64,000 nt of DNA from an uncultured Desulfobacteraceae bacterium (GTDB taxonomy: Bacteria > Desulfobacterota > Desulfobacteria > Desulfobacterales > UBA5616): positions 8,110 to 72,109 of the forward strand of contig CAYLRU010000008.1 in NCBI GenBank assembly GCA_964386565.1, written 5' to 3'. Below the pieces are notes generated by a model. It was not told the DNA's origin. It worked only from the letters and a program-made list of their open reading frames with translations, and ran no database searches. Positions 10,696 through 24,228 of the stretch are shown here, one piece after another. The position numbers were made by a program, and so were the translations under genes. Positions within the stretch are counted from its first letter, which is position 1. Every line of letters starts with the position of its first letter.

Positions 10696-10854
10696 TTGAC
10701 AACACTTAAGATATTGTTTATAAATAAAAACAACTTCAGGCTGAAGCCTGAACCGAATATTCATTGCTGTCATGAAACCCACGCTGCCACGAAGGTAACC
10801 ATATCATGAAGATATGCGGATTTCGTGGTTTTTTTTTTGGAAACGGAGGATCAA
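10696..10854 (+). promoter_or_regulatory. promoter plus ~125-nt structured leader of the Ni/Co ECF transporter operon (candidate attenuator/riboswitch)
   Basis: TTGACA 10696-10701, 17-nt spacer, TATAAA 10719-10724. Hairpin TTCAGGC(10735-41)-tgaa-GCCTGAA(10746-52). Terminator at 10786-10838, then GGAGGA and ATG 10855. Confidence 0.55.
10786..10838 (+). terminator. intrinsic terminator inside the 5' leader, 6 nt upstream of the SD
   Basis: Outer stem CCACGAA(10787-93)/TTCGTGG(10822-28), inner stem CATATC/GATATG, followed by T10 (10829-10838). No plus-strand gene lies upstream for it to terminate. Confidence 0.65.
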
Positions 10855-11634
10855 ATGAAAAAAGGTTTATGTTTCAGTCTATCTTTGGTAGTTTTATCTT
10901 TATTATGCGTCTGTCCGGTCATGGCACACTACGGCATGATCATTGTCTCCGACACCATGGTGATGCAGGAGGACAATCGGACGGTCCACGTGGATCTCTC
11001 GTTTTCCCACCCGTTTGAACTCATCGGTATGGAACTGGAAAAGCCCAAAGTCTTTGGTGTGATGGCCAACGGTAAAAAACAGGATCTGCTGGAAACCCTG
11101 AAGCAAACCAAGGTAATGGATCATACGGCATGGACCGCAAATTATAAAATCAGACGACCGGGCATCTATATGTTTTACATGGAGCCGACCCCCTACTGGG
11201 AGCCGTCCGAGGATTGTTTTATTGTTCATTACACGAAAACCGTTGTGGCCGCCTTCGGGAACGACGAAGGGTGGGATGAACCAGTGGGATTGAAAACGGA
11301 AATCGTACCTGTTTCCAAACCCTTTGGGCTTTATGCGGGAAACGTATTCCAGGGTATGGTTCTGCTGGATGGAAACCCGGTACCCAACGCCGAGGTTGAG
11401 ATTGAATTTTACAACCAGCAGAAAAAATTCCAGGCACCCACGGACTATATGATCACCCAAACCATAAAGGCCGATCCCAACGGCATCTTCACCTATGCCC
11501 CCCCACAAGCAGGCTGGTGGGGATTTGCCGCGTTGAACACTGCTGATGAAAAAATACAACGAGACGGAAAAGACAAGGATGTGGAACTGGGCGCTGTTAT
11601 CTGGGTGAAATTTCACGAATTCAAAATGAAATAG
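10855..11634 (+). CDS. DUF4198-type periplasmic Ni/Co transporter component (NikK-like)
   Basis: ATG after GGAGGA; signal peptide MKKGLCFSLSLVVLSLLCVCPVMA-HYGMI. Size and position directly upstream of cbiM match the NikK/CbiK-type accessory component. Confidence 0.75.
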   Translation: MKKGLCFSLSLVVLSLLCVCPVMAHYGMIIVSDTMVMQEDNRTVHVDLSFSHPFELIGMELEKPKVFGVMANGKKQDLLETLKQTKVMDHTAWTANYKIRRPGIYMFYMEPTPYWEPSEDCFIVHYTKTVVAAFGNDEGWDEPVGLKTEIVPVSKPFGLYAGNVFQGMVLLDGNPVPNAEVEIEFYNQQKKFQAPTDYMITQTIKADPNGIFTYAPPQAGWWGFAALNTADEKIQRDGKDKDVELGAVIWVKFHEFKMK

Positions 11635-11645
11635 GAGACATCTCC

Positions 11646-12251
11646 ATGCATATTTCAGAAGGCGTATTGTCCGGTCCGGTCCTGATCTCCGGTTATGCAC
11701 TGGCAGCTGCCGGAACCGCCGTCGGACTGAAAAAACTGGATTACGAAAAAATCGCCCAGGTCGGTATTCTGGGGGCCTCGTTCTTTGTCGCGTCCCTGAT
11801 TCATGTTCCCATCGGCCCTGCAAACGTCCACCTGATTCTAAACGGTATTGTCGGGATGCTGCTGGGATGGGGGGCCTTCCCCGCCATCCTTGTAGCGTTG
11901 ACCCTTCAGGCTGTTTTGTTTCAATTCGGCGGCATCACCTCCCTTGGCGTCAATACGCTGACCATGGCAGCACCGGCAGTGGTCTGTTTTTACATGTTCG
12001 GATGGATCATCCGGAAAAAACCCGGTCTGGCCGGTATGGCCGCTTTTTTATGCGGGTTTACCGCCGTTTTTATGTCTGCAGTCATCGCCGGTGCCGCCCT
12101 GATGTTCACCGAAGAAAATTTCCTGAAGGTCGCAGCCCTCATTGTGGCGGCCCATCTTCCGGTCATGGTGGTGGAAGGATTGATCACGGCCTTTTGTGTT
12201 GAATTTTTAAGAAAAGTTCGTCCTGAGATACTGGCCATGCATTATTTATAA
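11646..12251 (+). CDS. cbiM: ECF transporter substrate-capture component CbiM/NikM
   Basis: Starts with the family hallmark MHISEGVL (Met1-His2 metal ligand). About 6 TM segments, 201 aa. Confidence 0.9.
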   Translation: MHISEGVLSGPVLISGYALAAAGTAVGLKKLDYEKIAQVGILGASFFVASLIHVPIGPANVHLILNGIVGMLLGWGAFPAILVALTLQAVLFQFGGITSLGVNTLTMAAPAVVCFYMFGWIIRKKPGLAGMAAFLCGFTAVFMSAVIAGAALMFTEENFLKVAALIVAAHLPVMVVEGLITAFCVEFLRKVRPEILAMHYL

Positions 12252-12299
12252 CTTTACCCGGCTTGGGCGTTTTTTGCAAAGAAATATGCCGGAATCCGT

Positions 12300-12983
12300 A
12301 TGTATGCGAAGAAAATCACCCAATCCGACTATACAATCATTGGAGAAAAAACCGTGGAAAACCGACTGTTCGGCAAAATATGCTTGTTATTTTTTGTGAC
12401 GGCATCCTTTTTCTCAATCACCTGCATCACTCCTGCCATGGCCCACAAGGTAACCGTGTTTGCCTGGGTGGAGGGCGACCAGGTGTTTACCGAAAGCAAA
12501 TTAAGCGGTGGAAAACGCGTTGCAGCGGGTGACATCACCGTTTACGATGCCTCCAACAACGTCCTTTTAAAAGGAAAAACCAATGACCAGGGAGAATTTT
12601 CATTTAAACTTCCACAAAAACCGCCCCTGATTATCGAGCTTAACGCCGGTATGGGACACCAGGCCAAATGGACCATTCAGCCGGATGACGTGGATGATGA
12701 TACCTTTCCAGCAGGCAATGATCCGGAAAAGGACATCATTGCCTCCGAACCGGTAAAAACAGCCCCGTCCGTGGACAGATCCGCGGAATTAAATACCGCG
12801 GATCTCGAAGCCGTGGTAGAAAGGGTCCTGGATAAAAAACTCAAACCCGTCATTCGATTGTTGGTGGATACCCGACAAAACGAACCGTCATTATCCGAAA
12901 TCATCGGCGGAATCGGCTATATCATGGGTATCGTGGGCATCATCGCCTATTTCCAAAGCCGGTCGCCGAAGCGGGACAAATAG
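12300..12983 (+). CDS. NikL-like nickel transport accessory protein (signal/TM - beta-sandwich - C-terminal TM)
   Basis: N-terminal hydrophobic segment ICLLFFVTASFFSITCITPAMA-HKV, a transthyretin/CarboxypepD_reg-like block (ITVYDASNNVLLKGKTNDQGEFSF) and a C-terminal TM (IIGGIGYIMGIVGIIAYF). Alternative start GTG 12354 after GGAG. Confidence 0.65.
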   Translation: MYAKKITQSDYTIIGEKTVENRLFGKICLLFFVTASFFSITCITPAMAHKVTVFAWVEGDQVFTESKLSGGKRVAAGDITVYDASNNVLLKGKTNDQGEFSFKLPQKPPLIIELNAGMGHQAKWTIQPDDVDDDTFPAGNDPEKDIIASEPVKTAPSVDRSAELNTADLEAVVERVLDKKLKPVIRLLVDTRQNEPSLSEIIGGIGYIMGIVGIIAYFQSRSPKRDK

Positions 12984-13014
12984 GGAACCGGCCCGAGAAA
13001 ACCGTTCATTAAAC

Positions 13015-13773
13015 ATGATCGAAGAATATTTTACTGAAGCAGGTACCCAGATCCACCGGCTGGATCCGCGGCTTCGAATCGTTTTTGCCACGGCCTACGC
13101 GTTTTCCGTGGCCCCTCTCCATCGATTCGAACCCATGTATGCAGCGGCGGTGTTGTCCCTGTTGATGGTCATCCTGTCCGGAGTGGGTATCGGGACTCTG
13201 GTGAAGCGCATGCTGGCCTTTAACGGTCTTGTTCTTCTGTTCTGGCTGGTGCTGCCCTTCACCTTTTCCGGTGAAGCCCTTTACAGTATCGGCCCGTTTA
13301 CCATCACCCGGCCCGGTGTTATCATGTCTGCAAAGATCACGCTGAAGGCCAACGCCATCATGCCGGCTTTCATTGTCATGATTTCAACGATCCCCGTTTC
13401 AGTCATGGGCCATGCCCTGGAAAAGCTTCATGTGCCGAAAAAAATCGTTCATATTCTTCTGTTGACTTACCGTTACATATTCGTGATAGAACAGGAATAT
13501 CAGCGGCTGAAGCGTGCCATAAAAACAAGGGGGTTTGTTCCCGGGACCAATATGCACACATACAAAACCTATGCATACCTCATCGGCATGATATTTGTCC
13601 GATCCCTGGACCGGGCCCAACGGGTGCATCAGGCCATGATCTGCCGCGGATTTTGCGGAAAATTTTTCTCCCTGAACCGATTTTCCTTGAAAAAAGCAGA
13701 CTATGCTTTTCTGCCGATCATGGCAGCCGCGATTATCGGACTGGAGGTGATGGAATGGATTCCGATCCGGTGA
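13015..13773 (+). CDS. cbiQ: ECF transporter transmembrane (T) component CbiQ
   Basis: 252-aa polytopic protein with the CbiQ/EcfT signature region (YRYIFVIEQEYQRLKRAIKTRGF). Sits between cbiM and cbiO. Confidence 0.88.
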   Translation: MIEEYFTEAGTQIHRLDPRLRIVFATAYAFSVAPLHRFEPMYAAAVLSLLMVILSGVGIGTLVKRMLAFNGLVLLFWLVLPFTFSGEALYSIGPFTITRPGVIMSAKITLKANAIMPAFIVMISTIPVSVMGHALEKLHVPKKIVHILLLTYRYIFVIEQEYQRLKRAIKTRGFVPGTNMHTYKTYAYLIGMIFVRSLDRAQRVHQAMICRGFCGKFFSLNRFSLKKADYAFLPIMAAAIIGLEVMEWIPIR

Positions 13774-14486
13774 TCATCCAACTGGAAAAGGTTAATTTCT
13801 CGTATCCCAACGGCCGGGTTGTACTTAAAGATACCGATTTTTCCCTCCGGACAGGCCAGAAAATCGGATTGATCGGCCACAACGGAAGCGGTAAATCCAC
13901 CTTCTTGCACATCCTGGTCGGGTTATTGAAAATATCCGGCGGTTCCATTCGCTTCTTCAGAGAACCGGTGGTATCTGAAAAAGATTTTCAAAAGGTCAGG
14001 CAGCACATCGGCCTGGTATTTCAGAATTCCGACGACCAGCTTTTCAGCCCAACGGTATTGGAAGACATTGCCTTTGGGTTGTTGAATCAGGGCAAAACAC
14101 CTGAAGAAGCCCGGGAAATATCCAGGAAACTGCTGACCGACCTCGACCTGAAAGATTTTGAAAACCGGGTCACCTACCGGCTGTCCGGCGGCGAAAAGCG
14201 GCTGGTAGCCCTGGCAACGGTTCTCGTCATGGAACCCCGGGTGCTGTTGCTGGATGAACCGTTTACCGGGCTGGACGAATACACCCGGGATCACATCATT
14301 GAAATCCTGAATCATCTGGATATCAGCTATATCATCGTGACCCATGAATACGACTCCCTGGTCCAGACCACCAGTGACATCTGCAGCATGGAGAATGGCA
14401 AAATCATTTATAACGGCGATTCATCCATGCTCCACAGCCATTTTCACCGGCACCCCGGGGGAACCGTCCACCATCATCACCGATAG
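13755..14486 (+). CDS. cbiO: ECF transporter ATPase CbiO with His-rich C-terminal tail
   Basis: ATG 13755 after GGAGGTGATGGA, overlapping the cbiQ end by 19 nt. Walker A GHNGSGKST, signature LSGGEKR, Walker B LLLDEP. Tail: HSHFHRHPGGTVHHHHR. Confidence 0.9.
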   Translation: MDSDPVIIQLEKVNFSYPNGRVVLKDTDFSLRTGQKIGLIGHNGSGKSTFLHILVGLLKISGGSIRFFREPVVSEKDFQKVRQHIGLVFQNSDDQLFSPTVLEDIAFGLLNQGKTPEEAREISRKLLTDLDLKDFENRVTYRLSGGEKRLVALATVLVMEPRVLLLDEPFTGLDEYTRDHIIEILNHLDISYIIVTHEYDSLVQTTSDICSMENGKIIYNGDSSMLHSHFHRHPGGTVHHHHR

Positions 14487-14494
14487 CGACACCG

Positions 14495-15421
14495 ATGACA
14501 GACGATATTCTTATTCAGCATCATTTCCTGTTTCAAAAAGGATTCTTTGAAAGGCACCCTTCCCTTTTTGATATCTATTTCCGCAATACCCCGAGAAAGC
14601 TGTACGACAAATTGGAAAAGACAAAAGCCGCCCTTACCGCCTATGAAGGAACCATTCAATGGCCGGCGATCAGGGGGCCGGGATTTTGCGGGGCCACCCA
14701 TCCCGGGGCCGGAAAAAGTTTTAACGGCTACATGACGGGCTGCTCCCCGTCTTTTTACAACAGCGACTGTCTTTATGTCCATCCGGGTCTGAACATTTTT
14801 GCCGTATCCGACCCCCCCGGGATCACCACAATCTCCCGAAAGCTTTTTGAAAAACTGGATGACCGGTTAAGAAAAACAACCACGGATAGACTTGATACTG
14901 TCATCAATGACCTGGCCGCCGGCATCCAGGAAAACGGGCCCACCCTGGCATTGATTCAATTTCAACAATACGGCATCTCCCGGACGCCAAACCGGGCATT
15001 TGTTTATATCGCCGGTGACACCGAAGTATACCGGGGAAACTTTAAAGGGGAAAAAATCAAACGGATTAACGGCAGCCCGCATTTCTGGGGAACTGCATGC
15101 CATGATTTAAAGCCCCGCGTGTTTGAATTGAACAGCAACGATTTTTTTCTTATCGTCAGTGACGGCATCAGCAGTCTGAGACAGACCGTTCCCGAGCATG
15201 GAATCGAAAAAATCCTTTGGGAACATATCATTCGTGATCCTGAAAAATTTGCCGAAAACGTCACCATGACCTGCAACCGGGTTTTTACCCAAAACAATAA
15301 CGGCAGATCCCGAACCCTGCTCGGCGGAACGGATGACATCACCGCCCTGCTAGTCGTCCCATCGGCGCTTGCCCAAATCCCTGTTGATAAAGGATACATA
15401 CTGGGAGGACACATCGGCTAA
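14495..15421 (+). CDS. PP2C/SpoIIE-family phosphatase-like protein
   Basis: Starts 8 nt after cbiO. Degenerate PP2C motifs FAVSDPPG, FFLIVSDGISS and GGTDDITALLV. Confidence 0.55.
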   Translation: MTDDILIQHHFLFQKGFFERHPSLFDIYFRNTPRKLYDKLEKTKAALTAYEGTIQWPAIRGPGFCGATHPGAGKSFNGYMTGCSPSFYNSDCLYVHPGLNIFAVSDPPGITTISRKLFEKLDDRLRKTTTDRLDTVINDLAAGIQENGPTLALIQFQQYGISRTPNRAFVYIAGDTEVYRGNFKGEKIKRINGSPHFWGTACHDLKPRVFELNSNDFFLIVSDGISSLRQTVPEHGIEKILWEHIIRDPEKFAENVTMTCNRVFTQNNNGRSRTLLGGTDDITALLVVPSALAQIPVDKGYILGGHIG

Positions 15422-15645: not shown

Positions 15646-16518
15646 TCATTGTCCCGGGTTCCAGACGTCCCTGAGGCTGTCCCCCAAAAGATTAAAGGCC
15701 AATACGGAAAGCATGATGGCAATTCCCGGATATACTGAAAGATGGGGTGCGCTTAAAATATAGTCTTTCCCTTCCATGAGCAACGTACCCCATTCCGGAT
15801 AGGGTGGCTGGACACCGAATCCCAAAAACCCAAGGGCCGATACGGCAATAATTGCCTTTGCCAGTCCGATGGTGGCAAGAACGATGACCGATCCGATGTT
15901 TGCCGGCAAGATATGGCGAAAAACAATAACAATTCTTGATACCCCTGAAAACTGCGCGACTTTTACATAATCCCGTTCCTTAACAGAAAGGGTAATCCCT
16001 CTGACAAGTCTGGCGTAACGCATCCAGCCGGTAATGGAAAGGGCAAAAATCAGATTAAATGTGCCCGGTCCCATTAGCCCTGCCAGTGTCATGGCAGCAA
16101 CTATCTCAGGAAGGGAAAGAAAAATATCGGCAATTCTCATGAGCAATTCATCCATGAGACCGCCCTGGTAGCCGGCAACCAACCCAACCATTACTCCCAA
16201 AAGGCAGGAAACCATCACCACAGAAACTCCCAGCCCTATGGACATGCGCGCACCAGACAAAATACGTGAAAAAAGACACCGGCCCAAGGCATCATTGCCC
16301 AGAGGATATTGCAGGCAAGGAGAAGCTAATCTTAAAGACAAATCTGTCTTCAGGGGATCATGGGGGGATAGCGCAGGCCCCAAGGCAGCTATAAAAAACA
16401 CCACGACTGCGATTACGGCCGCGCCTGAAATCAGGGGGTTTTTAATTACGGAGCGGTAAAATCTGCCCTGGATTTTTTCATATCCGGCATGCTCCCGCGA
16501 AAAATCATGAGCACTCAT
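15646..16518 (-). CDS. Opp/Dpp/Nik-type ABC transporter permease (DppC/NikC-like)
   Basis: 290-aa polytopic protein with the BPD_transp_1 EAA-type region. Overlaps the upstream permease by 4 nt. Confidence 0.9.
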   Translation of the reverse strand: MSAHDFSREHAGYEKIQGRFYRSVIKNPLISGAAVIAVVVFFIAALGPALSPHDPLKTDLSLRLASPCLQYPLGNDALGRCLFSRILSGARMSIGLGVSVVMVSCLLGVMVGLVAGYQGGLMDELLMRIADIFLSLPEIVAAMTLAGLMGPGTFNLIFALSITGWMRYARLVRGITLSVKERDYVKVAQFSGVSRIVIVFRHILPANIGSVIVLATIGLAKAIIAVSALGFLGFGVQPPYPEWGTLLMEGKDYILSAPHLSVYPGIAIMLSVLAFNLLGDSLRDVWNPGQ

Positions 16519-17453
16519 AATGGTCGAATCCGTGGATCCAGATATTGGTAGACAATATCCACAAAAAAATTAATCAGGACAAAAATCATAGCGGTAAAAA
16601 ACACCAGACCTTGTATCAAAGGATAATCCCTGTTGCTGACCGCATTGACCATCAGTTCCCCCAGCCCCGGCCATGCGAAAATGGTTTCCGTTATCACTGC
16701 TCCCTCAAGAATCATTCCCAATTCCAGCCCCACCACGGTAACTACAGGTATCATTGCATTTTTCAATATGTGACCTCCGAGCACGAGGCGGCTACTGACG
16801 CCTCTGGCGCGAAGGGCCAACAGGTATTCAGACTGCAAGGTTTCTGCGACGGCGGAACGCAAAATTCGTGTCGTATAGGCCGTCAGTGCGGTTCCCAGTG
16901 TTATGGCGGGCAAAACCAGATGCTGCCAATCCCCACGGCCAAAGCTTGGAAGCCAATGAAGTTTCACACAAAAAACAACAATGAGCACCAGCCCAAGCCA
17001 GTAATTGGGCATGGAAATACCGGTTACGGCAACCGCAACTCCGATTGAATCAAGCCATGTGCCTTGCCTGACGCCTGAAAGAATACCGATTGGCACGGAT
17101 ATGATCAGTGCAAGGAAAATGGCGGTTATGGCAAGATCAAAGGTACGGCTGAATCGAATGCTGATGAGTTCCCAAACAGGTACTTCCTCCACCAGTGATA
17201 TGCCAAAGTCAAGACGGACGACATGCTTCAACCAATGGAAATATTGCTGATAAAAAGGCTTGTCCAATCCTTCTTCCTGAATGATCCATTCAATGGTGGC
17301 CTGATCTACTAAACCTGGTTCTCCATAGCGGGCAATGGCTATCTCCAGGGGGGCGTCACCCGGTGCAAGCAGCATCATGGCGTAGGTAAAAAAAGTTGCG
17401 CCAATGAGGACAAAAATTGCGGTAACTATGCGCTTTGATATGAATCGTACCAT
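16515..17453 (-). CDS. Opp/Dpp/Nik-type ABC transporter permease (DppB/NikB-like)
   Basis: 312 aa with the typical DppB N-terminus (IVTAIFVLIGATFFTYAMMLLAPGDP) and C-terminus (IVYQYLDPRIR). Confidence 0.9.
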   Translation of the reverse strand: MVRFISKRIVTAIFVLIGATFFTYAMMLLAPGDAPLEIAIARYGEPGLVDQATIEWIIQEEGLDKPFYQQYFHWLKHVVRLDFGISLVEEVPVWELISIRFSRTFDLAITAIFLALIISVPIGILSGVRQGTWLDSIGVAVAVTGISMPNYWLGLVLIVVFCVKLHWLPSFGRGDWQHLVLPAITLGTALTAYTTRILRSAVAETLQSEYLLALRARGVSSRLVLGGHILKNAMIPVVTVVGLELGMILEGAVITETIFAWPGLGELMVNAVSNRDYPLIQGLVFFTAMIFVLINFFVDIVYQYLDPRIRPL

Positions 17454-17477
17454 TCAAACATTTTTCTATAACTGACG

Positions 17478-19277
17478 TTAATCTAAATGACAAAAAATCT
17501 CATGTTCGCACGTGATATTTCTTTTTAACGGCGCGATTTTTTCGCATACCGAGAGCCGTCGGGGGCATCTTGAGTGAAATATACAGCCGGATGGCGGGTC
17601 ATAAGGAGACGGAATCTCCCCTTCAAGAACGATCCGTTTATCCTGCCATAGGCCGGGTTTTAGTGCATTTGACAAAAGGGCCTGTGAATATGGATGGCGA
17701 GCGGAGGAAAAAAAGATTTCCACCGGGGCCTTTTCAACGATTCTTCCCAGATACATTACAGCCACGGTTGTGCCGATGTCTTTGACAAGGCCGAGGTCGT
17801 GGGTAATGAGAAAACAGGTCAGGCCATGCCGCCTTTTCAGCCTGTAAAGCAGCTTCGCCATGTCTTTTTGGTTCACAGCATCCAGAGCGCTCAGGGGTTC
17901 GTCGAGAAATAAAAGATCGGGGCCGGTTGAAAGGGCACGGGCGATACATGCTCTTTGATTCTGACCCACCGATACTCTCCCGGGTGGTTGCTGAAGCAAA
18001 GAGTATGAAAGCCCCACTTCCGCTGCCAATCTTTTGACAATCTTTTCCCTCTCTTTCTTCTTAACACCCCTGGCATGTAACGGCTCCATAATAGACTGTC
18101 CCAAGGAAAGATAGGGGCTTAAAGAAGCAACCGGATCCTGGAAGACCACCTGGGACTTGGATTTCATCCTTTGATGGACCGGATCGCCGGGCCGCCTGAC
18201 GGGTTGACCATCGAAAATCATCTCACCTTCCTGATACGGACAGAATCCTAGCATGGCGTTTATCAGGGTTGTCTTTCCGGAACCGCTTTCACCTATCAGG
18301 CAAAAGATCTCTTCACGGCGGACATCCAGACTGATATTCCTTACGGCATAAAATGAACGATGGGAAAAGAGCGTTTCGGCCCTAAGCGTGAATTGAACGG
18401 AAAAGTTGCGGATGGAAATGGCGGAAGCTGTCTCCGGTTTTTCATACCTGTTCCCGACTTGTTCAGACATACCTGAAACAAGCCGCCGGGTATATGGATG
18501 TGACGGTCGGAAAACTATTTCACGCGCTGCCCCGTTTTCCACGATATGGCCCTTGTGCATCACCGCTACCCGGTCACATACCTCCAGGGCAACTGAGAGG
18601 TCGTGGGTGATAAAGATGATTCCGGTGCCATAACGTTTTTTTAAAAGGGCGATTAACTGGATGATCTGCACGGTAATCGTAGGATCAAGGGCCGATGTAA
18701 CTTCATCCAGTATCACGACTTCCGGCCTGGTGGAAAATGCCATTTGTAACTGGGCACGTTGCAGCATCCCCCGGCTCCATTGATGGGGATACTGCCGACA
18801 CCGTTCTTCCGGTGAAGCAATGCCAACCGTTTGGAGAAGGTCATTTATTTTTTGATTTTCCCTTTCCTGTTTTCTCCATCTACGCTTTTTTAAGCCGGAG
18901 CGAACCGACAGAACATCTTTGAATTGGTTACCCACTGTAAAGACCGGGTCCATCGCGCTTTTGGGATTTTGCAGCACCAGGGATATCTTACGTCCCCTGA
19001 AATACTGCATCTTTTGCTGACTTTGCGTGGTGAGCTCTTGACCACCCAGAACAATGGAACCGGAAACAATTTTTCCCGGGTATTCCAGCCGTACAAGGGT
19101 CCTGGCAAAAACGCTTTTCCCGCAACCGGATTCCCCCACAAGGCCGAGAATTTCACCCCGGTTAAGCGAGAGACATAGACCATCGAGAACCCTTGGACCG
19201 GTCGCCCTGCCTGGTAAATCGACAACCAGGTTTTTCACCTTAAGAATTGGATTCGCTGCTGTCGCGCGTTGATACAT
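17478..19277 (-). CDS. fused double ATPase of Opp/Dpp/Nik-type ABC transporter (DppD-DppF fusion)
   Basis: 599 aa with two nucleotide-binding domains: Walker A GESGCGKS and GESGSGKT, two signature/Walker B sets (ILDEVTSALD, LFLDEPLSALD). Confidence 0.9.
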   Translation of the reverse strand: MYQRATAANPILKVKNLVVDLPGRATGPRVLDGLCLSLNRGEILGLVGESGCGKSVFARTLVRLEYPGKIVSGSIVLGGQELTTQSQQKMQYFRGRKISLVLQNPKSAMDPVFTVGNQFKDVLSVRSGLKKRRWRKQERENQKINDLLQTVGIASPEERCRQYPHQWSRGMLQRAQLQMAFSTRPEVVILDEVTSALDPTITVQIIQLIALLKKRYGTGIIFITHDLSVALEVCDRVAVMHKGHIVENGAAREIVFRPSHPYTRRLVSGMSEQVGNRYEKPETASAISIRNFSVQFTLRAETLFSHRSFYAVRNISLDVRREEIFCLIGESGSGKTTLINAMLGFCPYQEGEMIFDGQPVRRPGDPVHQRMKSKSQVVFQDPVASLSPYLSLGQSIMEPLHARGVKKKEREKIVKRLAAEVGLSYSLLQQPPGRVSVGQNQRACIARALSTGPDLLFLDEPLSALDAVNQKDMAKLLYRLKRRHGLTCFLITHDLGLVKDIGTTVAVMYLGRIVEKAPVEIFFSSARHPYSQALLSNALKPGLWQDKRIVLEGEIPSPYDPPSGCIFHSRCPRRLSVCEKIAPLKRNITCEHEIFCHLD

Positions 19278-19317
19278 TTTTCAGCACCTGCCGTTTTTGC
19301 ACCGGGTGGTTGAGAAT

Positions 19318-20904
19318 TCATTTTCGATAGATCTCGGGGGTCAGAAGGAATTTCTCCGCCGGATGAATCCGGTAGTTTTGCACATAATTATAGGCGACGG
19401 ATACCATTGATTTGTAAAACAGCACAATCACAGGACTGTCGTCATAGATAATTTCCTGAATCCGGTCATAAATTATTTTGCGCTTTTTAGGGTCAAAAGT
19501 GACTTTTCCTTTTCTCGCCAATTCGTCCAGTTCCGAGTTGTGGTATCCCATACAGTTTGACCCGGCCTGGCCGGTAAAAACATTGGAGATGAAAAAATCA
19601 GGGTCACCTTCAGGAGCAACGTTCCACATCTGCAAATTTAAATGAACCTCGCCTTTTCTCATGGCCCTGCTGATAGGTGATCCCCTTTGGGTAATTTTCA
19701 GCTTTGTAATGATGCCCACCCTATGCAATTGTGCCTGTATCAATTCAAGGACCGGTTTTAACGATGCACGTCCTTCATAGGTCCACATATTCAGTAACAA
19801 CGGCCGGCCGGCCATTTCCAATATCCCGTCTCCGTCACTGTCTTTGGCGCCGGCCTCAGCCAAAAGCTTTAATGCTTTGTCAGGGTCATAAGGATACGGT
19901 TTCAGGTTACGGTTACCCCAGGGAATGGTTCCAGGAAAAACTGACGCGCCGACTTGTCCCCCCACGCCGCCAAGAACCGTATCAACAATCTCCTGTCGAT
20001 TGATGGCATGGTTGATGGCCTTTCGGACACGGGAATCGGCAAGAGGGCCGTCTGCAATCCTTACAAAAAAAAAGCAAAGCCGATTGGTGGGTTCGTGATA
20101 GATTCGGACGTCTTTTCGCGATGCCATGCGCTTTACATCATTTTCAGGAAAATTTGTCACCACATCCAATTGTCCGGCTTCAAACGCCAGCATCCGCGTT
20201 GAAGGGTTCCTGATGATTTTCAGATGAACTTTTGCAAGCTTTGCCCTGCCCCCCCAATAACCGTCAAATCGGGACACAATCATCTCTTCCTTTGGAATCA
20301 CCTTGTCCAATACAAACGGGCCGGTGCCGTAAATTCTTTCTTTACTGCTCCCGGGGCTGACAATCCCTGTCCCAGGTGATGTTAAATAATATAAAAACGC
20401 AGCATTGGGCTTATGGGTTTCAAATACCAGGATATCGTTATCCTTAACGGTGATGTTTTTGATATCCAGCATTTTCTGTATCCGTATATTGAACACCTCG
20501 CTTTTTTTATCAATAATACGGTCAATGGACCATTTAACGGCTCTGGCGTTTAAGGGTGTATTGTCATGAAACCGGATCCCATTTTTTAATTTGATCTCCC
20601 AGATTAAAGGACTGAGGTTTTTGGATGCAGCCACGAGCCAGGGCCTTAAATTCATTTCAAAGTCAAGCACAAAGAGCGTTTCGGTCACTCCGGCCTCGTT
20701 GGTGTACCAACCGTTGGCCCCTTTGGCCGGATCAGGACATTTTACGGATGGGCCAAAAGGTTTGGCAATGATCAGTTTGTCCGGTCCGGCTGCAAAAACA
20801 CCGGTAGCAAATAATTCCAGTGAAAACAGAAGGATCAGTATAACAGCCAGACCAATCTCCCTATCTTCTTGCATGCGCAATAAAGAATGCCGGTTTTTTT
20901 TCAT
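19318..20904 (-). CDS. family 5 (DppA/NikA-type) ABC substrate-binding protein
   Basis: SBP_bac_5-like sequence across about 500 aa. Signal peptide after MKKNRHSLLRMQEDRE-IGLAVILILLFSLELFATGVFA. The start is ambiguous (20904, 20874, or up to 21051); every option overlaps the methyltransferase 3' end. Confidence 0.85.
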   Translation of the reverse strand: MKKNRHSLLRMQEDREIGLAVILILLFSLELFATGVFAAGPDKLIIAKPFGPSVKCPDPAKGANGWYTNEAGVTETLFVLDFEMNLRPWLVAASKNLSPLIWEIKLKNGIRFHDNTPLNARAVKWSIDRIIDKKSEVFNIRIQKMLDIKNITVKDNDILVFETHKPNAAFLYYLTSPGTGIVSPGSSKERIYGTGPFVLDKVIPKEEMIVSRFDGYWGGRAKLAKVHLKIIRNPSTRMLAFEAGQLDVVTNFPENDVKRMASRKDVRIYHEPTNRLCFFFVRIADGPLADSRVRKAINHAINRQEIVDTVLGGVGGQVGASVFPGTIPWGNRNLKPYPYDPDKALKLLAEAGAKDSDGDGILEMAGRPLLLNMWTYEGRASLKPVLELIQAQLHRVGIITKLKITQRGSPISRAMRKGEVHLNLQMWNVAPEGDPDFFISNVFTGQAGSNCMGYHNSELDELARKGKVTFDPKKRKIIYDRIQEIIYDDSPVIVLFYKSMVSVAYNYVQNYRIHPAEKFLLTPEIYRK

Positions 20905-21601
20905 TCTGTTTTTTGCCCCCATAAGGATTAAAGCCAACGCGAGATGTATCATAAGATCGAATCTCTTTAAAACGGGCAGCATGCAAAAGCATGCTGGCCT
21001 TTTCAAAGCAAATGCCTTCATAAAATGGAAGCGACTTTTGCAGACCGGCATAGCTTCGGAAAAAACGAAGGAAAATCATACTGCGGTTCCGGCGCATCCC
21101 TTTGAGCAATTTGAAAGCCAAATGATGAATACGCTTCCAAGTGGTATTCATCCATAACCCGTCGGATACTATCAAGATGCCTTCTGGTTTCAAAATCCGC
21201 CGCCATTCTTCAAGTGCTTTATCGGGATGCGGAAGCGTCCACAACAAATTCCGGGAAACCACCACATCAAAAGTGCTGTCACCGAACGCAAGCGCCTCGG
21301 CGTCTCCGATCTGAAAATCGATATCAAGCCCTTGATTTGCTGCATATTGCCCGGCAATGAAAAGCATGTTTTCGGCCAGATCGATACCCGTCACGTTGAA
21401 ACCGGCACGGGCGAGATATACGGCAAACTGTCCGGTCCCGGTTCCGATATCCAGCGCGCGCCTTCCGGGAGCCCCTGGAGCCAGTTCTTTTAAAATGGAT
21501 TCCCAGTTCTTGGCTATTGCAATCGACTTGTCCGTATCATGGCCGTAACTTCTGCTTCTCCAGTTCCAGTAATTTTTAATCGAAGCTTTTACCCTGTCCA
21601 T
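20861..21601 (-). CDS. class I SAM-dependent methyltransferase
   Basis: SAM-binding motif I ALDIGTGTGQFAVYLARAGFNVTGIDLAENML, then the acidic post-I and motif II region (GDAEALAFGDSTFDVVVS). Confidence 0.85.
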   Translation of the reverse strand: MDRVKASIKNYWNWRSRSYGHDTDKSIAIAKNWESILKELAPGAPGRRALDIGTGTGQFAVYLARAGFNVTGIDLAENMLFIAGQYAANQGLDIDFQIGDAEALAFGDSTFDVVVSRNLLWTLPHPDKALEEWRRILKPEGILIVSDGLWMNTTWKRIHHLAFKLLKGMRRNRSMIFLRFFRSYAGLQKSLPFYEGICFEKASMLLHAARFKEIRSYDTSRVGFNPYGGKKQNEKKPAFFIAHARR

Positions 21602-21704
21602 ATAGATCCTCTCAAAAAGCTAACCGATGCAGTTACCACCGGCAGATGCATTCCGCCCATAGAGGCTGCATCGGTAATGTCAAATCCGGGTCACACCATG
21701 GTCT

Positions 21705-24020
21705 TTAGTAGCAAACGCTCACCGTACCGAGCCAAAATCGGCCGGGGGCACGGTAGTATTCATAGTATTTTTCATCAAAAAGATTGTCCACGGAAAGGGA
21801 GAGTGCGATATGGTCCATCGGCCTGGCAGTTATCTTGGCGTCTACAATATGGTATTCGTCATCTGCTCTGTATGTTGTGTCCGCATATTGGGCATATTCA
21901 TCATCGTATCTGCTGTCACAATATCTATAGCTGATGCTCGCATCCAGGTAACGGCCGAAATAGCCAAGCCAGAGGCTCCACATGTCCGTGGGCGTCTCAT
22001 TCACTTCCCATCCCAGCTTGGAAGAAACTTGCGTTTTCGTATATTCGGACCAGTTATGCGCATAAAACAGACCGGCCTTCATATTGTGGGGCAGAAGGGC
22101 TTCAATCGAGGCCTCGATACCGTTTACCTCGGCCTCTTCGGCATTGACCCGCTTTTTCTCTGTTACCTGGGTTCCGTCCGCAAGGGTATAAGTTGTTGTT
22201 TGATTTACGATCAGGTCCTTAAAATCATTTTCAAAATAGGTTGCCTTGACCCGGATGCGCTTTTCCCAGAATTCCCATTCCGTACCGATCTCCCAGGATT
22301 TATTGGTCGTGGGGCCAAGGTCGGGATTCGGATCGGCCATGGAAATGGTTCCGCCGCCTTCCCAATAGTAGCTTGCGGTTCTGTAATACAGGGAAGGTGC
22401 GGTAAATGCTTCGCCATACGACGCCCGAACTGTACCGTTCTCAAATGGACGATACACCAACGACACTTTGGGGCTGAACTTTCCGTCATCCGTGTCCGGG
22501 TATTCGATATTACTTCCGTCAATATTGGAATAGTCTGCATCAGTACCCCACCAATGGTCGTAGCGGCCGCCCAGATAGGCAGTCAAATGGTCTGCAGGTG
22601 AATACTCCACCTGGATGAATGTTCCCAGCGTACGGTTTTTGCCTGAAGTCTCTTCCCTGACGGATACAGTGCTGTCTTTGTCGTAAGGATCGGAAAGGTT
22701 ATTGTCCGTGACCGTGGCCTCTTCCTGAACGCCTTGAATTCCCACCGTAACCAGGCATTTGTCGTTCAAATAATGAAATGTGGCTGCCAGATCGGCCTGG
22801 GCAAGGTAATTGTCTTCCACCTTATACCGGCTGTTGCTGATATTATGGGTCGCACTTTCCTTATCGTTGAAAGCGAGAAGACCAACGATATCTACCGAGT
22901 CGGGTATTGAGTGATTGAAACGCAGGGTGTGGACCATGGATTCTTTTGTTTTCGGGTTCGAAGTAAAATTAAACGGGCTCAATGTTGTTGTGTATGTGTT
23001 TCCCCCATCCTGAATATAGACATCGCCTTCATAGAGGGTTGTTCCGGATGAATTCTTCAGAAAGCTCTTCCCGTCCTTCCAACCGTATTCGAATTCGCTG
23101 ATATTGAGGCTGTACCATAACCGGGTATTGGGGGCGAAGTCATAACCTGTTTTAAAAAACAGGCCGTGGTCTTCATACCAGTTGTCGCCCTGATGACCGA
23201 TCTTGTAGCGATCATTTCCGGTTTGCGGATCAACATCCTTTTCCCAGCCTGTTACTATCGGGATATTGGGATCAAGCACACCTGTAACGGGGGTGTTCAG
23301 GCTTTTGTAAGAAGGAGTCGTGACATAGCCGTCCGAACTACGCGATTTGAAACTGAACGAGTAAAAAAAACGGTCGCCAAGGATGGTGGGGTCAAACCAG
23401 AAACTCCGTTTCCTGCCACCATTTTTCTTTCCAAAAGGTCGATCGGCAAATCTGAAACTGTAAAAATGGCTGTTCCAGTTGCCGTAAGAAGCCGAGGCAT
23501 CTATCTCCGCATCTTCCGGTATTTTTGTTGTATAATTAATAACGCCGGTCTGGGCCAACGTTCCGTATAGCGCGGAAAACGGCCCTCTGACCACGTCAAT
23601 TCTTTCCACATCCGGCATCGGTATGGCACCGGTATGCGAATAGTAGCCGTAATCGTACCAATTGACCCCGTCAACCTGAACAAGGGCTCTTTGGCTGCGG
23701 ATAACAGGCCGGGCCCAATAGTCCGCCAGCCCCCGGTACTGCCTTGGCCAGATCCCTTCCGTCAGGACAAGCGGTTTAAAGGGGTGCTCGGAATTAAAGG
23801 CCTTTATTTCATCTTCCGTAATGACGGAAACGCTTGCCGGAGCATCTATCGGCGCTTTTGGTGTTCTTGTTGCCATAACCGTTATGGGTTCAAGTTGGTA
23901 CGGTTCGGCATCATGTCTGACCGTCGACTGGTGGCCGGCGTCTTCTGTCTCAGCCCACACCGGTTGACAAATAAAAAAGATCATTGCCGCTGCAAAACAC
24001 AATATCGATTTCAACTTCAT
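21705..24020 (-). CDS. TonB-dependent outer-membrane receptor
   Basis: ATG 24020 after GGAGGAGG; signal peptide MKLKSILCFAAAMIFFICQPVWA. Plug-domain motifs (EPITVMATR, VVRGPFSALYG), a long beta-barrel and an aromatic C-terminus. Confidence 0.92.
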   Translation of the reverse strand: MKLKSILCFAAAMIFFICQPVWAETEDAGHQSTVRHDAEPYQLEPITVMATRTPKAPIDAPASVSVITEDEIKAFNSEHPFKPLVLTEGIWPRQYRGLADYWARPVIRSQRALVQVDGVNWYDYGYYSHTGAIPMPDVERIDVVRGPFSALYGTLAQTGVINYTTKIPEDAEIDASASYGNWNSHFYSFRFADRPFGKKNGGRKRSFWFDPTILGDRFFYSFSFKSRSSDGYVTTPSYKSLNTPVTGVLDPNIPIVTGWEKDVDPQTGNDRYKIGHQGDNWYEDHGLFFKTGYDFAPNTRLWYSLNISEFEYGWKDGKSFLKNSSGTTLYEGDVYIQDGGNTYTTTLSPFNFTSNPKTKESMVHTLRFNHSIPDSVDIVGLLAFNDKESATHNISNSRYKVEDNYLAQADLAATFHYLNDKCLVTVGIQGVQEEATVTDNNLSDPYDKDSTVSVREETSGKNRTLGTFIQVEYSPADHLTAYLGGRYDHWWGTDADYSNIDGSNIEYPDTDDGKFSPKVSLVYRPFENGTVRASYGEAFTAPSLYYRTASYYWEGGGTISMADPNPDLGPTTNKSWEIGTEWEFWEKRIRVKATYFENDFKDLIVNQTTTYTLADGTQVTEKKRVNAEEAEVNGIEASIEALLPHNMKAGLFYAHNWSEYTKTQVSSKLGWEVNETPTDMWSLWLGYFGRYLDASISYRYCDSRYDDEYAQYADTTYRADDEYHIVDAKITARPMDHIALSLSVDNLFDEKYYEYYRAPGRFWLGTVSVCY

Positions 24021-24228
24021 TTCAAATCCTCCTCCAAATAAAAAAGCCACGAAGTCGCTCTCCTTTCCGGGAGCACAGACCTTCGTGGCCTTTTGTTCAG
24101 GCTCTTTATATTGTTTCCGCCGATATACGGCGACATGACTTTTGGCTTTGCCCTGAAATTAAACCGTTTGCGACTTCTGCCGCAGATTAAGAAAGAATTT
24201 TTTTACTTGATATTTTCCGGGAAGTCAA
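24021..24228 (-). promoter_or_regulatory. promoter plus ~170-nt structured leader of the TonB-receptor/ABC operon (candidate attenuator/riboswitch, related to 10696-10854)
   Basis: Read on the minus strand: TTGACT (24228-24223), 17-nt spacer, TAAAAA (24205-24200). TTCAGGGC (24157-24150) can pair with GCCTGAA (24102-24096). Internal hairpin CGCCG-tatat-CGGCG (24132-24118). Terminator at 24089-24036, then GGAGGAGG (24035-24028) and ATG 24020. Confidence 0.55.
24036..24089 (-). terminator. intrinsic terminator inside the 5' leader, abutting the SD
   Basis: 5' arm GCCACGAAGGTC and 3' arm GACTTCGTGGC (one bulged G), with an inner GCTCC/GGAG(A)GC stem, followed by TTTTTTATTT and then directly GGAGGAGG. 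Confidence 0.65.

Follow-up and report, generated by a model that had tools for sequence, protein, structure and literature searches.

Organization of the locus

We analyzed a window of 64,000 nt from an uncultured bacterium of the Desulfobacteraceae (assembly GCA_964386565.1, contig CAYLRU010000008.1, positions 8,110 to 72,109). Six open reading frames (ORFs), all in the same direction on the minus strand at 15646-24020, encode a TonB-dependent receptor (TBDR), a class I methyltransferase (MT) dependent on S-adenosylmethionine (SAM), a family-5 periplasmic substrate-binding protein (SBP), a fused NikD/E ATPase and the permeases NikB and NikC. Operons of this kind, with an outer-membrane receptor and an Opp/Nik-type metal-chelate importer, are already known, as in the Cnt systems; our subject is the MT within the uptake operon and its link to nicotianamine synthase (NAS). 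Coordinates given with no locus number are positions in the window, where 15,646-24,020 is the TBDR operon; the source genome (G000) is a 3.38-Mb assembly that is 96.8% complete. The operon has the following features.

21705..24020, minus strand: TonB-dependent receptor (TBDR), 771 aa if counted from the ATG at 24020, with a signal peptide that ends in VWA-ET
21623..21643, minus strand: weak terminator-like hairpin within the 103-nt TBDR-MT spacer
20861..21601, minus strand: class I SAM-dependent methyltransferase (MT, P0001), 246 aa, cytoplasmic, YWxWR-motif family
19318..20904, minus strand: family-5 periplasmic substrate-binding protein (SBP), 528 aa, alternative start at 20874
17478..19277, minus strand: fused NikD-NikE double ATPase, 599 aa, two ABC_tran domains and oligo_HPY
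16515..17453, minus strand: NikB-type permease, BPD_transp_1 and its N-terminal domain
15646..16518, minus strand: NikC-type permease, BPD_transp_1 and OppC_N, 4-nt overlap with NikB

ORF calls together with Pfam and NCBIfam profiles bear out a first-pass annotation that had described six packed co-directional genes with these domains, and the ORF coordinates agree with the two overlaps it had pointed to, between MT and SBP and, by 4 nt, between the permeases. The MT stop codon (20861-20863) is overlapped by the SBP gene from either of its starts: from 20904, where a signal peptide begins, the overlap with the MT 3′ end is 44 nt, and from 20874, the public gene call, it is 14 nt. The probable start of the TBDR gene is the ATG at 24020, which is preceded by GGAGGAGG and begins a signal peptide. 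A promoter and terminator scan of the region gave site counts not above those of shuffled controls, so the hairpin at 21623..21643 is taken as a possible attenuation point at most.

A leader common to two importers

The TBDR operon is convergent, across a gap of 224 nt, with an operon for an energy-coupling factor (ECF) importer of Ni/Co, the NikKMLQO-type system that the first-pass annotation had placed tail-to-tail with it. Each of the two operons is headed by a copy of the same leader.

24021..24228, minus strand: leader of the TBDR operon, with a TTGACT-N17 promoter-like box, ~170 nt and a GCCACGAAGGT...GACTTCGTGGC-TTTTTT terminator hairpin (24036-24090)
10856..15421, plus strand: NikK(DUF4198)-NikM(CbiM)-NikL-NikQ(CbiQ)-NikO ECF Ni/Co importer and a 308-aa ORF, identified by Pfam matches, presumed to belong to the same regulon
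10696..10855, plus strand: second leader copy, before the ECF operon, with a GCCACGAAGGT...TTTCGTGG-T10 terminator at 10786-10835

Both leaders end with GCCACGAAGGT, an inner hairpin, (C/T)TTCGTGG and a T-run; in the TBDR operon the Shine-Dalgarno sequence and the ATG follow directly after the terminator hairpin. The pattern CCACGAAGG-N10-45-TCGTGGNTTTT has exactly two matches in the 3.38-Mb assembly, one ahead of each operon (the reversed-pattern control has none). A shared leader motif had earlier been taken to suggest one regulon; given a pattern that occurs in the genome before both importers and nowhere else, we presume that the two importers form one regulon. In Rfam neither leader matched a family, at gathering scores or at E up to 10. 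A profile search found no NikR_C domain (PF08753) in the source genome, while the control matched in five genomes.

The same leader element lies upstream of orthologous operons at loci L013, L018, L017 (twice), L027 and L034, across other families. Its variant GCCAGGAAGG/CTTYCTGGC preserves the stem by a compensatory change of C-G to G-C in which both sides are altered. In genome G265 (L028 10978-11046) a leader-like GCCAGGAAGG...terminator element is located between TBDR and MT, not upstream of the TBDR. In G064 (L021 3042-8825), and also in G209 (L026 1207-2054), the same leader stands ahead of a different operon, composed of a TBDR, a DUF4198 protein, a member of the tetrapyrrole methylase family whose N-terminus resembles a signal peptide, and a fusion of an inosine-uridine nucleoside hydrolase with FmdE.

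NikL of the ECF importer scores 174 bits with NF058648 (cut-off 100). The ECF ATPase NikO carries a His-rich tail (HSHFHRHPGGTVHHHHR, window 14436-14486). G001, a genome of the same genus (L040), retains NikQ, NikO and the 308-aa ORF (identities of 75%, 82% and 60%), with no cassette adjoining them; the 19 kb examined there contain neither a NikK/M/L match nor the CCANGAAGG leader core, which indicates that the front end of the ECF operon varies within the genus. As judged from these sequences, a cassette distribution in which G001 has none beside NikQ-NikO fits horizontal acquisition.

Nickel-type transporter components

The TBDR has the plug (PF07715 Plug, 48 bits), barrel (PF00593 TonB_dep_Rec_b-barrel, 154 bits) and signal peptide of a receptor; it reached no NCBIfam equivalog and has no close relative among solved structures. 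Its orthologues, with 49-74% identity, head the cassette in relatives. Both halves of the fused ATPase pass nickel cut-offs (TIGR02770 nikD, 339 versus 319; TIGR02769 nikE, 347 versus 333). NikB attains 350 bits with the Opp2B nickel permease model NF045470 (cut-off 350) and NikC attains 306 with Opp2C, NF045474 (cut-off 300); the permeases do not reach the cut-offs of TIGR nikB (290 versus 447) and TIGR nikC (312 versus 358). In relatives the ATPase is fused at L018, L025 and L030 and split at L013, L017, L020, L028, L029, L033 and L034. The fusion was considered as an assembly artefact and, as it recurs in relatives, this was rejected; the fused ATPase is a natural variant.

The source genome carries two genes for carbon monoxide dehydrogenase (CODH) of CooS type and acetyl-CoA synthase (ACS), and thus has a demand for nickel. 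No large subunit of [NiFe]-hydrogenase (PF00374) was found in this 96.8%-complete assembly, and CODH/ACS may be the main nickel sink of the organism. Genes for DUF4198/NikK, NicO and CooT recur beside related cassettes. Taken together, the ECF partner, the nickel-type scores, CODH/ACS and these neighbours in relatives suggest that nickel is most likely the cargo. The metal-chelate importer proposed at first pass gains support from the Nik cut-offs, from the leader in common with the NikKMLQO importer and from the NAS-adjacent cassettes of relatives described below.

The SBP matches SBP_bac_5 with 272 bits; its top NCBIfam match is Opp5A_nikA (245 versus a cut-off of 600), and it stays below nickel_nikA (170 versus 393). 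The best Foldseek matches of its structural model (predicted local distance difference test, pLDDT, of 94) are 5u4o, SaNikA, 3t66, EcNikA and GsiB, all with similar scores. A profile of the SBP orthogroup ranked the solved proteins in the order 3t66 (277 bits), 5u4o, GsiB, SaNikA (212), DppA (201), EcNikA (190) and CntA (153), the last about 30th among solved SBP relatives; 3t66 is a structural-genomics protein that its depositors named a nickel ABC transporter/nickel-binding protein. Among these nearest solved relatives nickel-binding proteins are mixed with glutathione- and peptide-binding ones, and neither Foldseek nor the profiles separated them. By sequence comparison, then, the SBP is a distinct subfamily, and its homologues are not enough to fix its ligand; outside the orthogroup (at least 54% identity), the closest homologue within the order has only 33% identity.

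The high rank of GsiB (1uqw) and DppA among solved SBP relatives, together with strong matches of the ATPase to dipeptide and oligopeptide models as well, could be read as the signature of an importer of peptides or glutathione that has nothing to do with metals, its nickel-gene neighbours being coincidental. We regard this as highly improbable, since the leader is common only with the Ni/Co ECF importer, related cassettes repeatedly have DUF4198/NikK, NicO and CooT genes as neighbours, relatives link the cassette to NAS, and a TonB receptor would be unexpected for peptide uptake.

The methyltransferase family

The MT matches Methyltransf_11 with 94.6 bits (cut-off 21.2) and also Methyltransf_25/31. 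Its predicted alternating strands and helices, the glycine-rich SAM motif LDIGTGTG and a Foldseek probability of 1.0 to class I MTs place it in class I. It falls below the cut-off of all named NCBIfam MTs (score/cut-off: CpaM 81/180, DVU_1556 75/155, TIGR01934 (UbiE/MenG) 70/158, ArsM 56/263 and BioC 53/185). The structural model (pLDDT 84.7) matches generic small-molecule MTs, first of all LahSB, a carboxylate O-methyltransferase, with others scoring nearly equal; Foldseek did not separate O-, N-, C- and S-methyltransferases. Look-alikes in the ESM Atlas were generic ‘class I SAM MT’ clusters only. A search for longer or fused forms yielded double-MT proteins alone (~40% identical across 60% of the query); none was an orthologous fusion. 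With CpaM as the best NCBIfam name, a cobalamin or corrinoid link was considered and dropped, as a B12 riboswitch is absent, the score falls well short of the cut-off and the neighbours are of nickel type.

More than 120 clusters of MT orthologues were detected at 57% identity or more, the named ones from Desulfonema, Desulfosarcina and other Desulfobacterales. The orthologues have 46 invariant residues, a set rich in Arg and Trp/Tyr, and the wider family is marked by an N-terminal YW(D/N)WR(S/A) motif. In a literature search we found no paper on this MT or its NAS link, and the terms nicotianamine synthase with Desulfobacter, Electrothrix or sulfate reducers returned nothing relevant. The conserved, importer-coupled MT family is new, a previously undescribed enzyme family.

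Conservation of the cassette in relatives

We used a sample of 401 genomes, evenly drawn from the order. The MT is present in 13 of them, with none of the organism's own genus or family among these. The SBP orthogroup is present in nine genomes, in eight of which the MT lies beside the SBP; a lack of synteny between MT and transporter in relatives had been named beforehand as a possible refutation, and the MT proved to be syntenic. The ninth genome, G086 (L030 4068-4466), has in the MT's position, directly upstream of the SBP, a 132-aa gene of the glyoxalase/VOC family; its contig ends soon after. Searches by tblastn with the six window proteins recovered the order TBDR-MT-SBP-NikD/E-NikB-NikC at L013, L018, L020, L022, L023, L025, L028 and, with a divergent TBDR, L017, and the order MT-TBDR-SBP in a Desulfobacter genome (L029). 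Gene tables gave TBDR-MT-SBP in Ca. Electrothrix scaldis (L033) and MT-TBDR-SBP in Desulfobacter curvatus (L034). In G064 the SBP following the MT is truncated by an IS66 transposase.

Link to nicotianamine synthase

NAS genes were found in 20 of the 401 genomes: in 9 of the 13 with the MT and in 11 of the 388 others. The nine genomes with both cover six families. Every MT-positive genome has the SBP cassette/importer, NAS or both, and SBP and NAS occur together in only four of the nine SBP genomes. In relatives, two tandem NAS genes are accompanied by a fold-type III pyridoxal phosphate (PLP) enzyme, and the MT is physically adjacent to NAS-NAS-PLP in G375, G027, G209, D. ovata and Ca. Electrothrix scaldis. 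The order in Desulfosarcina ovata is NAS, PLP enzyme, TBDR, DUF4198, a 569-aa protein, TBDR, MT and NikABCDE. In Ca. Electrothrix scaldis NAS, NAS, TBDR, MT, SBP, NikD, NikE, NikB and NikC lie in that order on a single strand, downstream of a NicO-like gene. A lone MT behind the leader is convergent with NASb-NASa-PLP in G375, MT and NAS are divergent neighbours in G027 and in a second copy in G209, and Desulfobacter curvatus has PLP, leader and MT-TBDR-SBP with the NAS pair elsewhere in the genome. This genomic tie of the MT to a tandem-NAS and PLP pathway in Desulfobacterota is new. As a separate observation, the G027 copy (L014 2091-2544) is a C-terminal MT half only (residues 118-245), directly behind the leader and beside an intact NAS pair; it looks like a decayed copy.

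The source genome differs from these producers. A profile search found no NAS gene in it, and the PLP enzyme is represented only by a 32%-identical paralogue. The opine dehydrogenase CntM (PF10100) had no match in the source genome, though the control search for it matched in no genome; the related loci that we inspected showed none either. Lacking NAS, the organism probably uses the chelator without making it. The split of carrier genomes into producers and non-producers is likewise new.

Co-occurrence with NAS in 9 of 13 genomes and adjacency to NAS-NAS-PLP in five would also be expected if the MT were an enzyme of biosynthetic tailoring, acting on a NAS-derived metallophore before export, with a place in the uptake operon due to linkage alone; in the NAS-less source genome it would be a leftover. 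Class I MTs of PF13649, PF13489 and PF13847 do occur in some zincophore clusters, where product modification was suggested (PMC7438024). Set against this, the MT never lies within the NAS-NAS-PLP unit and, even where it adjoins biosynthetic genes, remains behind an uptake-type leader; and the 11 other NAS-positive genomes do without it. With the contexts given in the next section, we judge tailoring unlikely.

Methyltransferases without NAS

In the four NAS-less genomes of the orthogroup (the source genome, G020, G148 and G228) the MT still has 45-46 of the 46 invariant residues. We also sampled distant MT relatives, at 37-44% identity. For P0026 no gene is recorded. Contigs P0297 and P0302 were too short for context and are left out of the six informative contexts, in all of which the MT belongs to a chelate-type (Nik/Opp or FecCD) importer operon, with gene order shuffled and adjacency kept.

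L035: NikBCDE-MT-SBP-Gate-DUF4198
L037: SBP-MT-NikBCDE
L039: MT-Peripla_BP_2-FecCD-ATPase-MT
L045: NikBCDE, then a convergent MT, then a TBDR 59% identical to the window TBDR
L046 and L047 (two genomes): SBP-NikBCDE-MT

Three of these six carriers (G479, G544 and G516) were searched as whole genomes, and no NAS was found in them; one is a 100%-complete single contig. At L039 (2823-7744, JAOTID010000011.1) two paralogous YWxWR-family MTs bracket the FecCD/Peripla_BP_2 importer, beside plasmid-type RP-C and relaxosome NikA-like genes. At L035 (9102-13211) the MT-bearing Nik-type operon with DUF4198 adjoins genes for transaldolase, RuBisCO large subunit and phosphoribulokinase.

Retention of the MT without NAS, importer linkage of its distant kin and its place outside the biosynthetic unit therefore favour a role on the ligand after import over tailoring. 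The first-pass annotation had listed modification of the imported chelate or of the metal, or a salvage step, as possible roles of the MT; the contexts of distant MTs and of NAS-less carriers lean toward action on the chelate, the reaction itself being our proposal.

An operon without NAS in its genome, and without a match to opine dehydrogenase (the control for which matched in no genome), might instead import nickel either free or in a simple complex (Ni-(His)2, for example), like E. coli NikABCDE or H. pylori FrpB4, with an MT unrelated to the ligand, e.g. one of TehB/TPMT-like detoxification. The permease and ATPase scores are indeed nickel-type, the closest structural matches of the SBP include SaNikA and EcNikA, which bind Ni-His complexes, and the MT has weak TehB matches. 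The latter, however, amount to just 24 bits, far under the generic MT models, and such import would explain neither the co-occurrence and adjacency of MT and NAS nor the presence of the same MT family beside a FecCD-type importer. We consider this alternative quite unlikely.

Proposed mechanism

The reading that we prefer, and to which we give about an even chance, is that the six genes form the uptake module of a Cnt-like system for a NAS-derived nickel metallophore, in which the MT acts on the imported ligand. A metal-chelate complex, most likely of nickel, would cross the outer membrane by way of the TonB receptor, and the dedicated family-5 SBP with the Nik/Opp-type ABC transporter would then deliver this complex to the cytoplasm. 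The chelator in this orthogroup is probably of nicotianamine type, the product of the tandem NAS-NAS (and PLP enzyme) operon in relatives; the source organism itself probably imports chelator produced by neighbours. In the cytoplasm the MT may methylate a carboxylate or an amine that serves the ligand as donor group. Methylation would weaken metal binding, so that Ni(II) could be freed without a redox step, and would also keep the free chelator from stripping cytoplasmic metals. The TBDR operon and the ECF nickel importer would both be switched by the common terminator-containing leader.

Several points weigh against this reading. The fold search returned generic small-molecule MTs only, and therefore leaves the chemistry of the MT unconstrained. 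In producer strains a methylating release step would equally strike newly made chelator. The MT is not indispensable, given the 11 NAS-positive genomes without it and the glyoxalase-family gene that G086 has instead. Fisher p-values overstate the MT-NAS association, as related genomes are non-independent. The SBP scores low with CntA (NF047575, 112 versus 800) and, among solved proteins, is about as close to the glutathione-binding GsiB as to nickel binders. It was suggested earlier that the SBP be checked for NikA-like His/Arg residues that ligate a chelate; all ligand contacts of E. coli NikA are replaced in it (R97E, W100N, R137G, W398N, Y402G and H416Q, in a phmmer alignment to 2noo that is locally uncertain).

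A wider proposal, which we put forward tentatively as possible though rather doubtful, has two parts. First, the YWxWR MTs would be widespread, dedicated cytoplasmic partners of Nik/Opp and FecCD chelate importers, freeing metal by ligand methylation. Second, Desulfobacterota, including cable bacteria, would possess an undescribed nickel metallophore made by NAS-NAS-PLP and taken up by non-producers.

Comparison with known systems

The Cnt opine-metallophore systems comprise those for staphylopine (CntKLM and CntABCDF, S. aureus), pseudopaline (CntOLMI, P. aeruginosa) and yersinopine. The likeness to them extends to a NAS-family enzyme that uses SAM to build the chelator, an importer of Opp/Nik type whose SBP belongs to family 5, a TonB receptor in Gram-negatives and the clustering of biosynthesis and uptake genes; the Electrothrix scaldis locus follows the same logic. 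Unlike the Cnt systems, relatives have two tandem NAS genes with a PLP enzyme of fold type III, the uptake unit contains a class I SAM MT, the biosynthetic half is missing from the source genome and the SBP is not CntA-like. With E. coli NikABCDE the operon shares the five transport functions, its NikB/C/D/E-type scores being at or above the NCBIfam nickel cut-offs; it differs in that the NikA pocket including His416 is not conserved, in place of NikR, which was not found, there is a leader with a terminator, the operon further includes a TonB receptor and an MT, and its ATPases are fused.

Haem degradation by ChuW/HutW is a precedent in anaerobes: there, SAM-dependent methylation of the ligand frees the metal of an imported chelate. 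ChuW is a radical-SAM enzyme that acts on a porphyrin, unlike the classical class I MT described here.

In cable bacteria an undefined TonB-dependent transporter was noted directly upstream of a putative Nik/Opp/Dpp operon, and the SBP was placed nearer S. aureus Opp1A than E. coli NikA (Hiralal et al. 2024, PMC11247825). This is apparently the same orthogroup, as Ca. Electrothrix SBPs are 57-59% identical to the window SBP. The words methyltransferase and nicotianamine do not appear in that paper, so the MT and the two NAS genes of the Electrothrix locus were apparently left unremarked. For opine-zincophore clusters, Morey and Kehl-Fie (2020, PMC7438024) reported class I MTs (PF13649, PF13489 and PF13847) within seven ORFs of cntM, with their role unexplained, and an enrichment of these MTs where the importer is of FecCD type. 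Those MTs were read as biosynthetic tailoring enzymes, whereas here the MT accompanies the importer even in NAS-less genomes.

Biological meaning

Nickel offers no accessible redox step, and we know of no described route by which cells release it from tight nicotianamine-type chelators, even for staphylopine and pseudopaline. The importer-coupled MT is a concrete candidate for this intracellular step; if that is true, metallophores would have a third way of giving up their metal, ligand methylation, in addition to reduction and hydrolysis. Sulfate reducers and cable bacteria inhabit sulfidic sediments that offer them little available nickel. Their demand for it is large, for CODH/ACS and for conductive fibres, which in cable bacteria are nickel-dependent (PMC11247825). 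The NAS link points to an undescribed nickel metallophore in these organisms, and the occurrence of producer and importer-only genomes in one order suggests that such a chelator may be shared, or stolen, as a public good in anaerobic communities.

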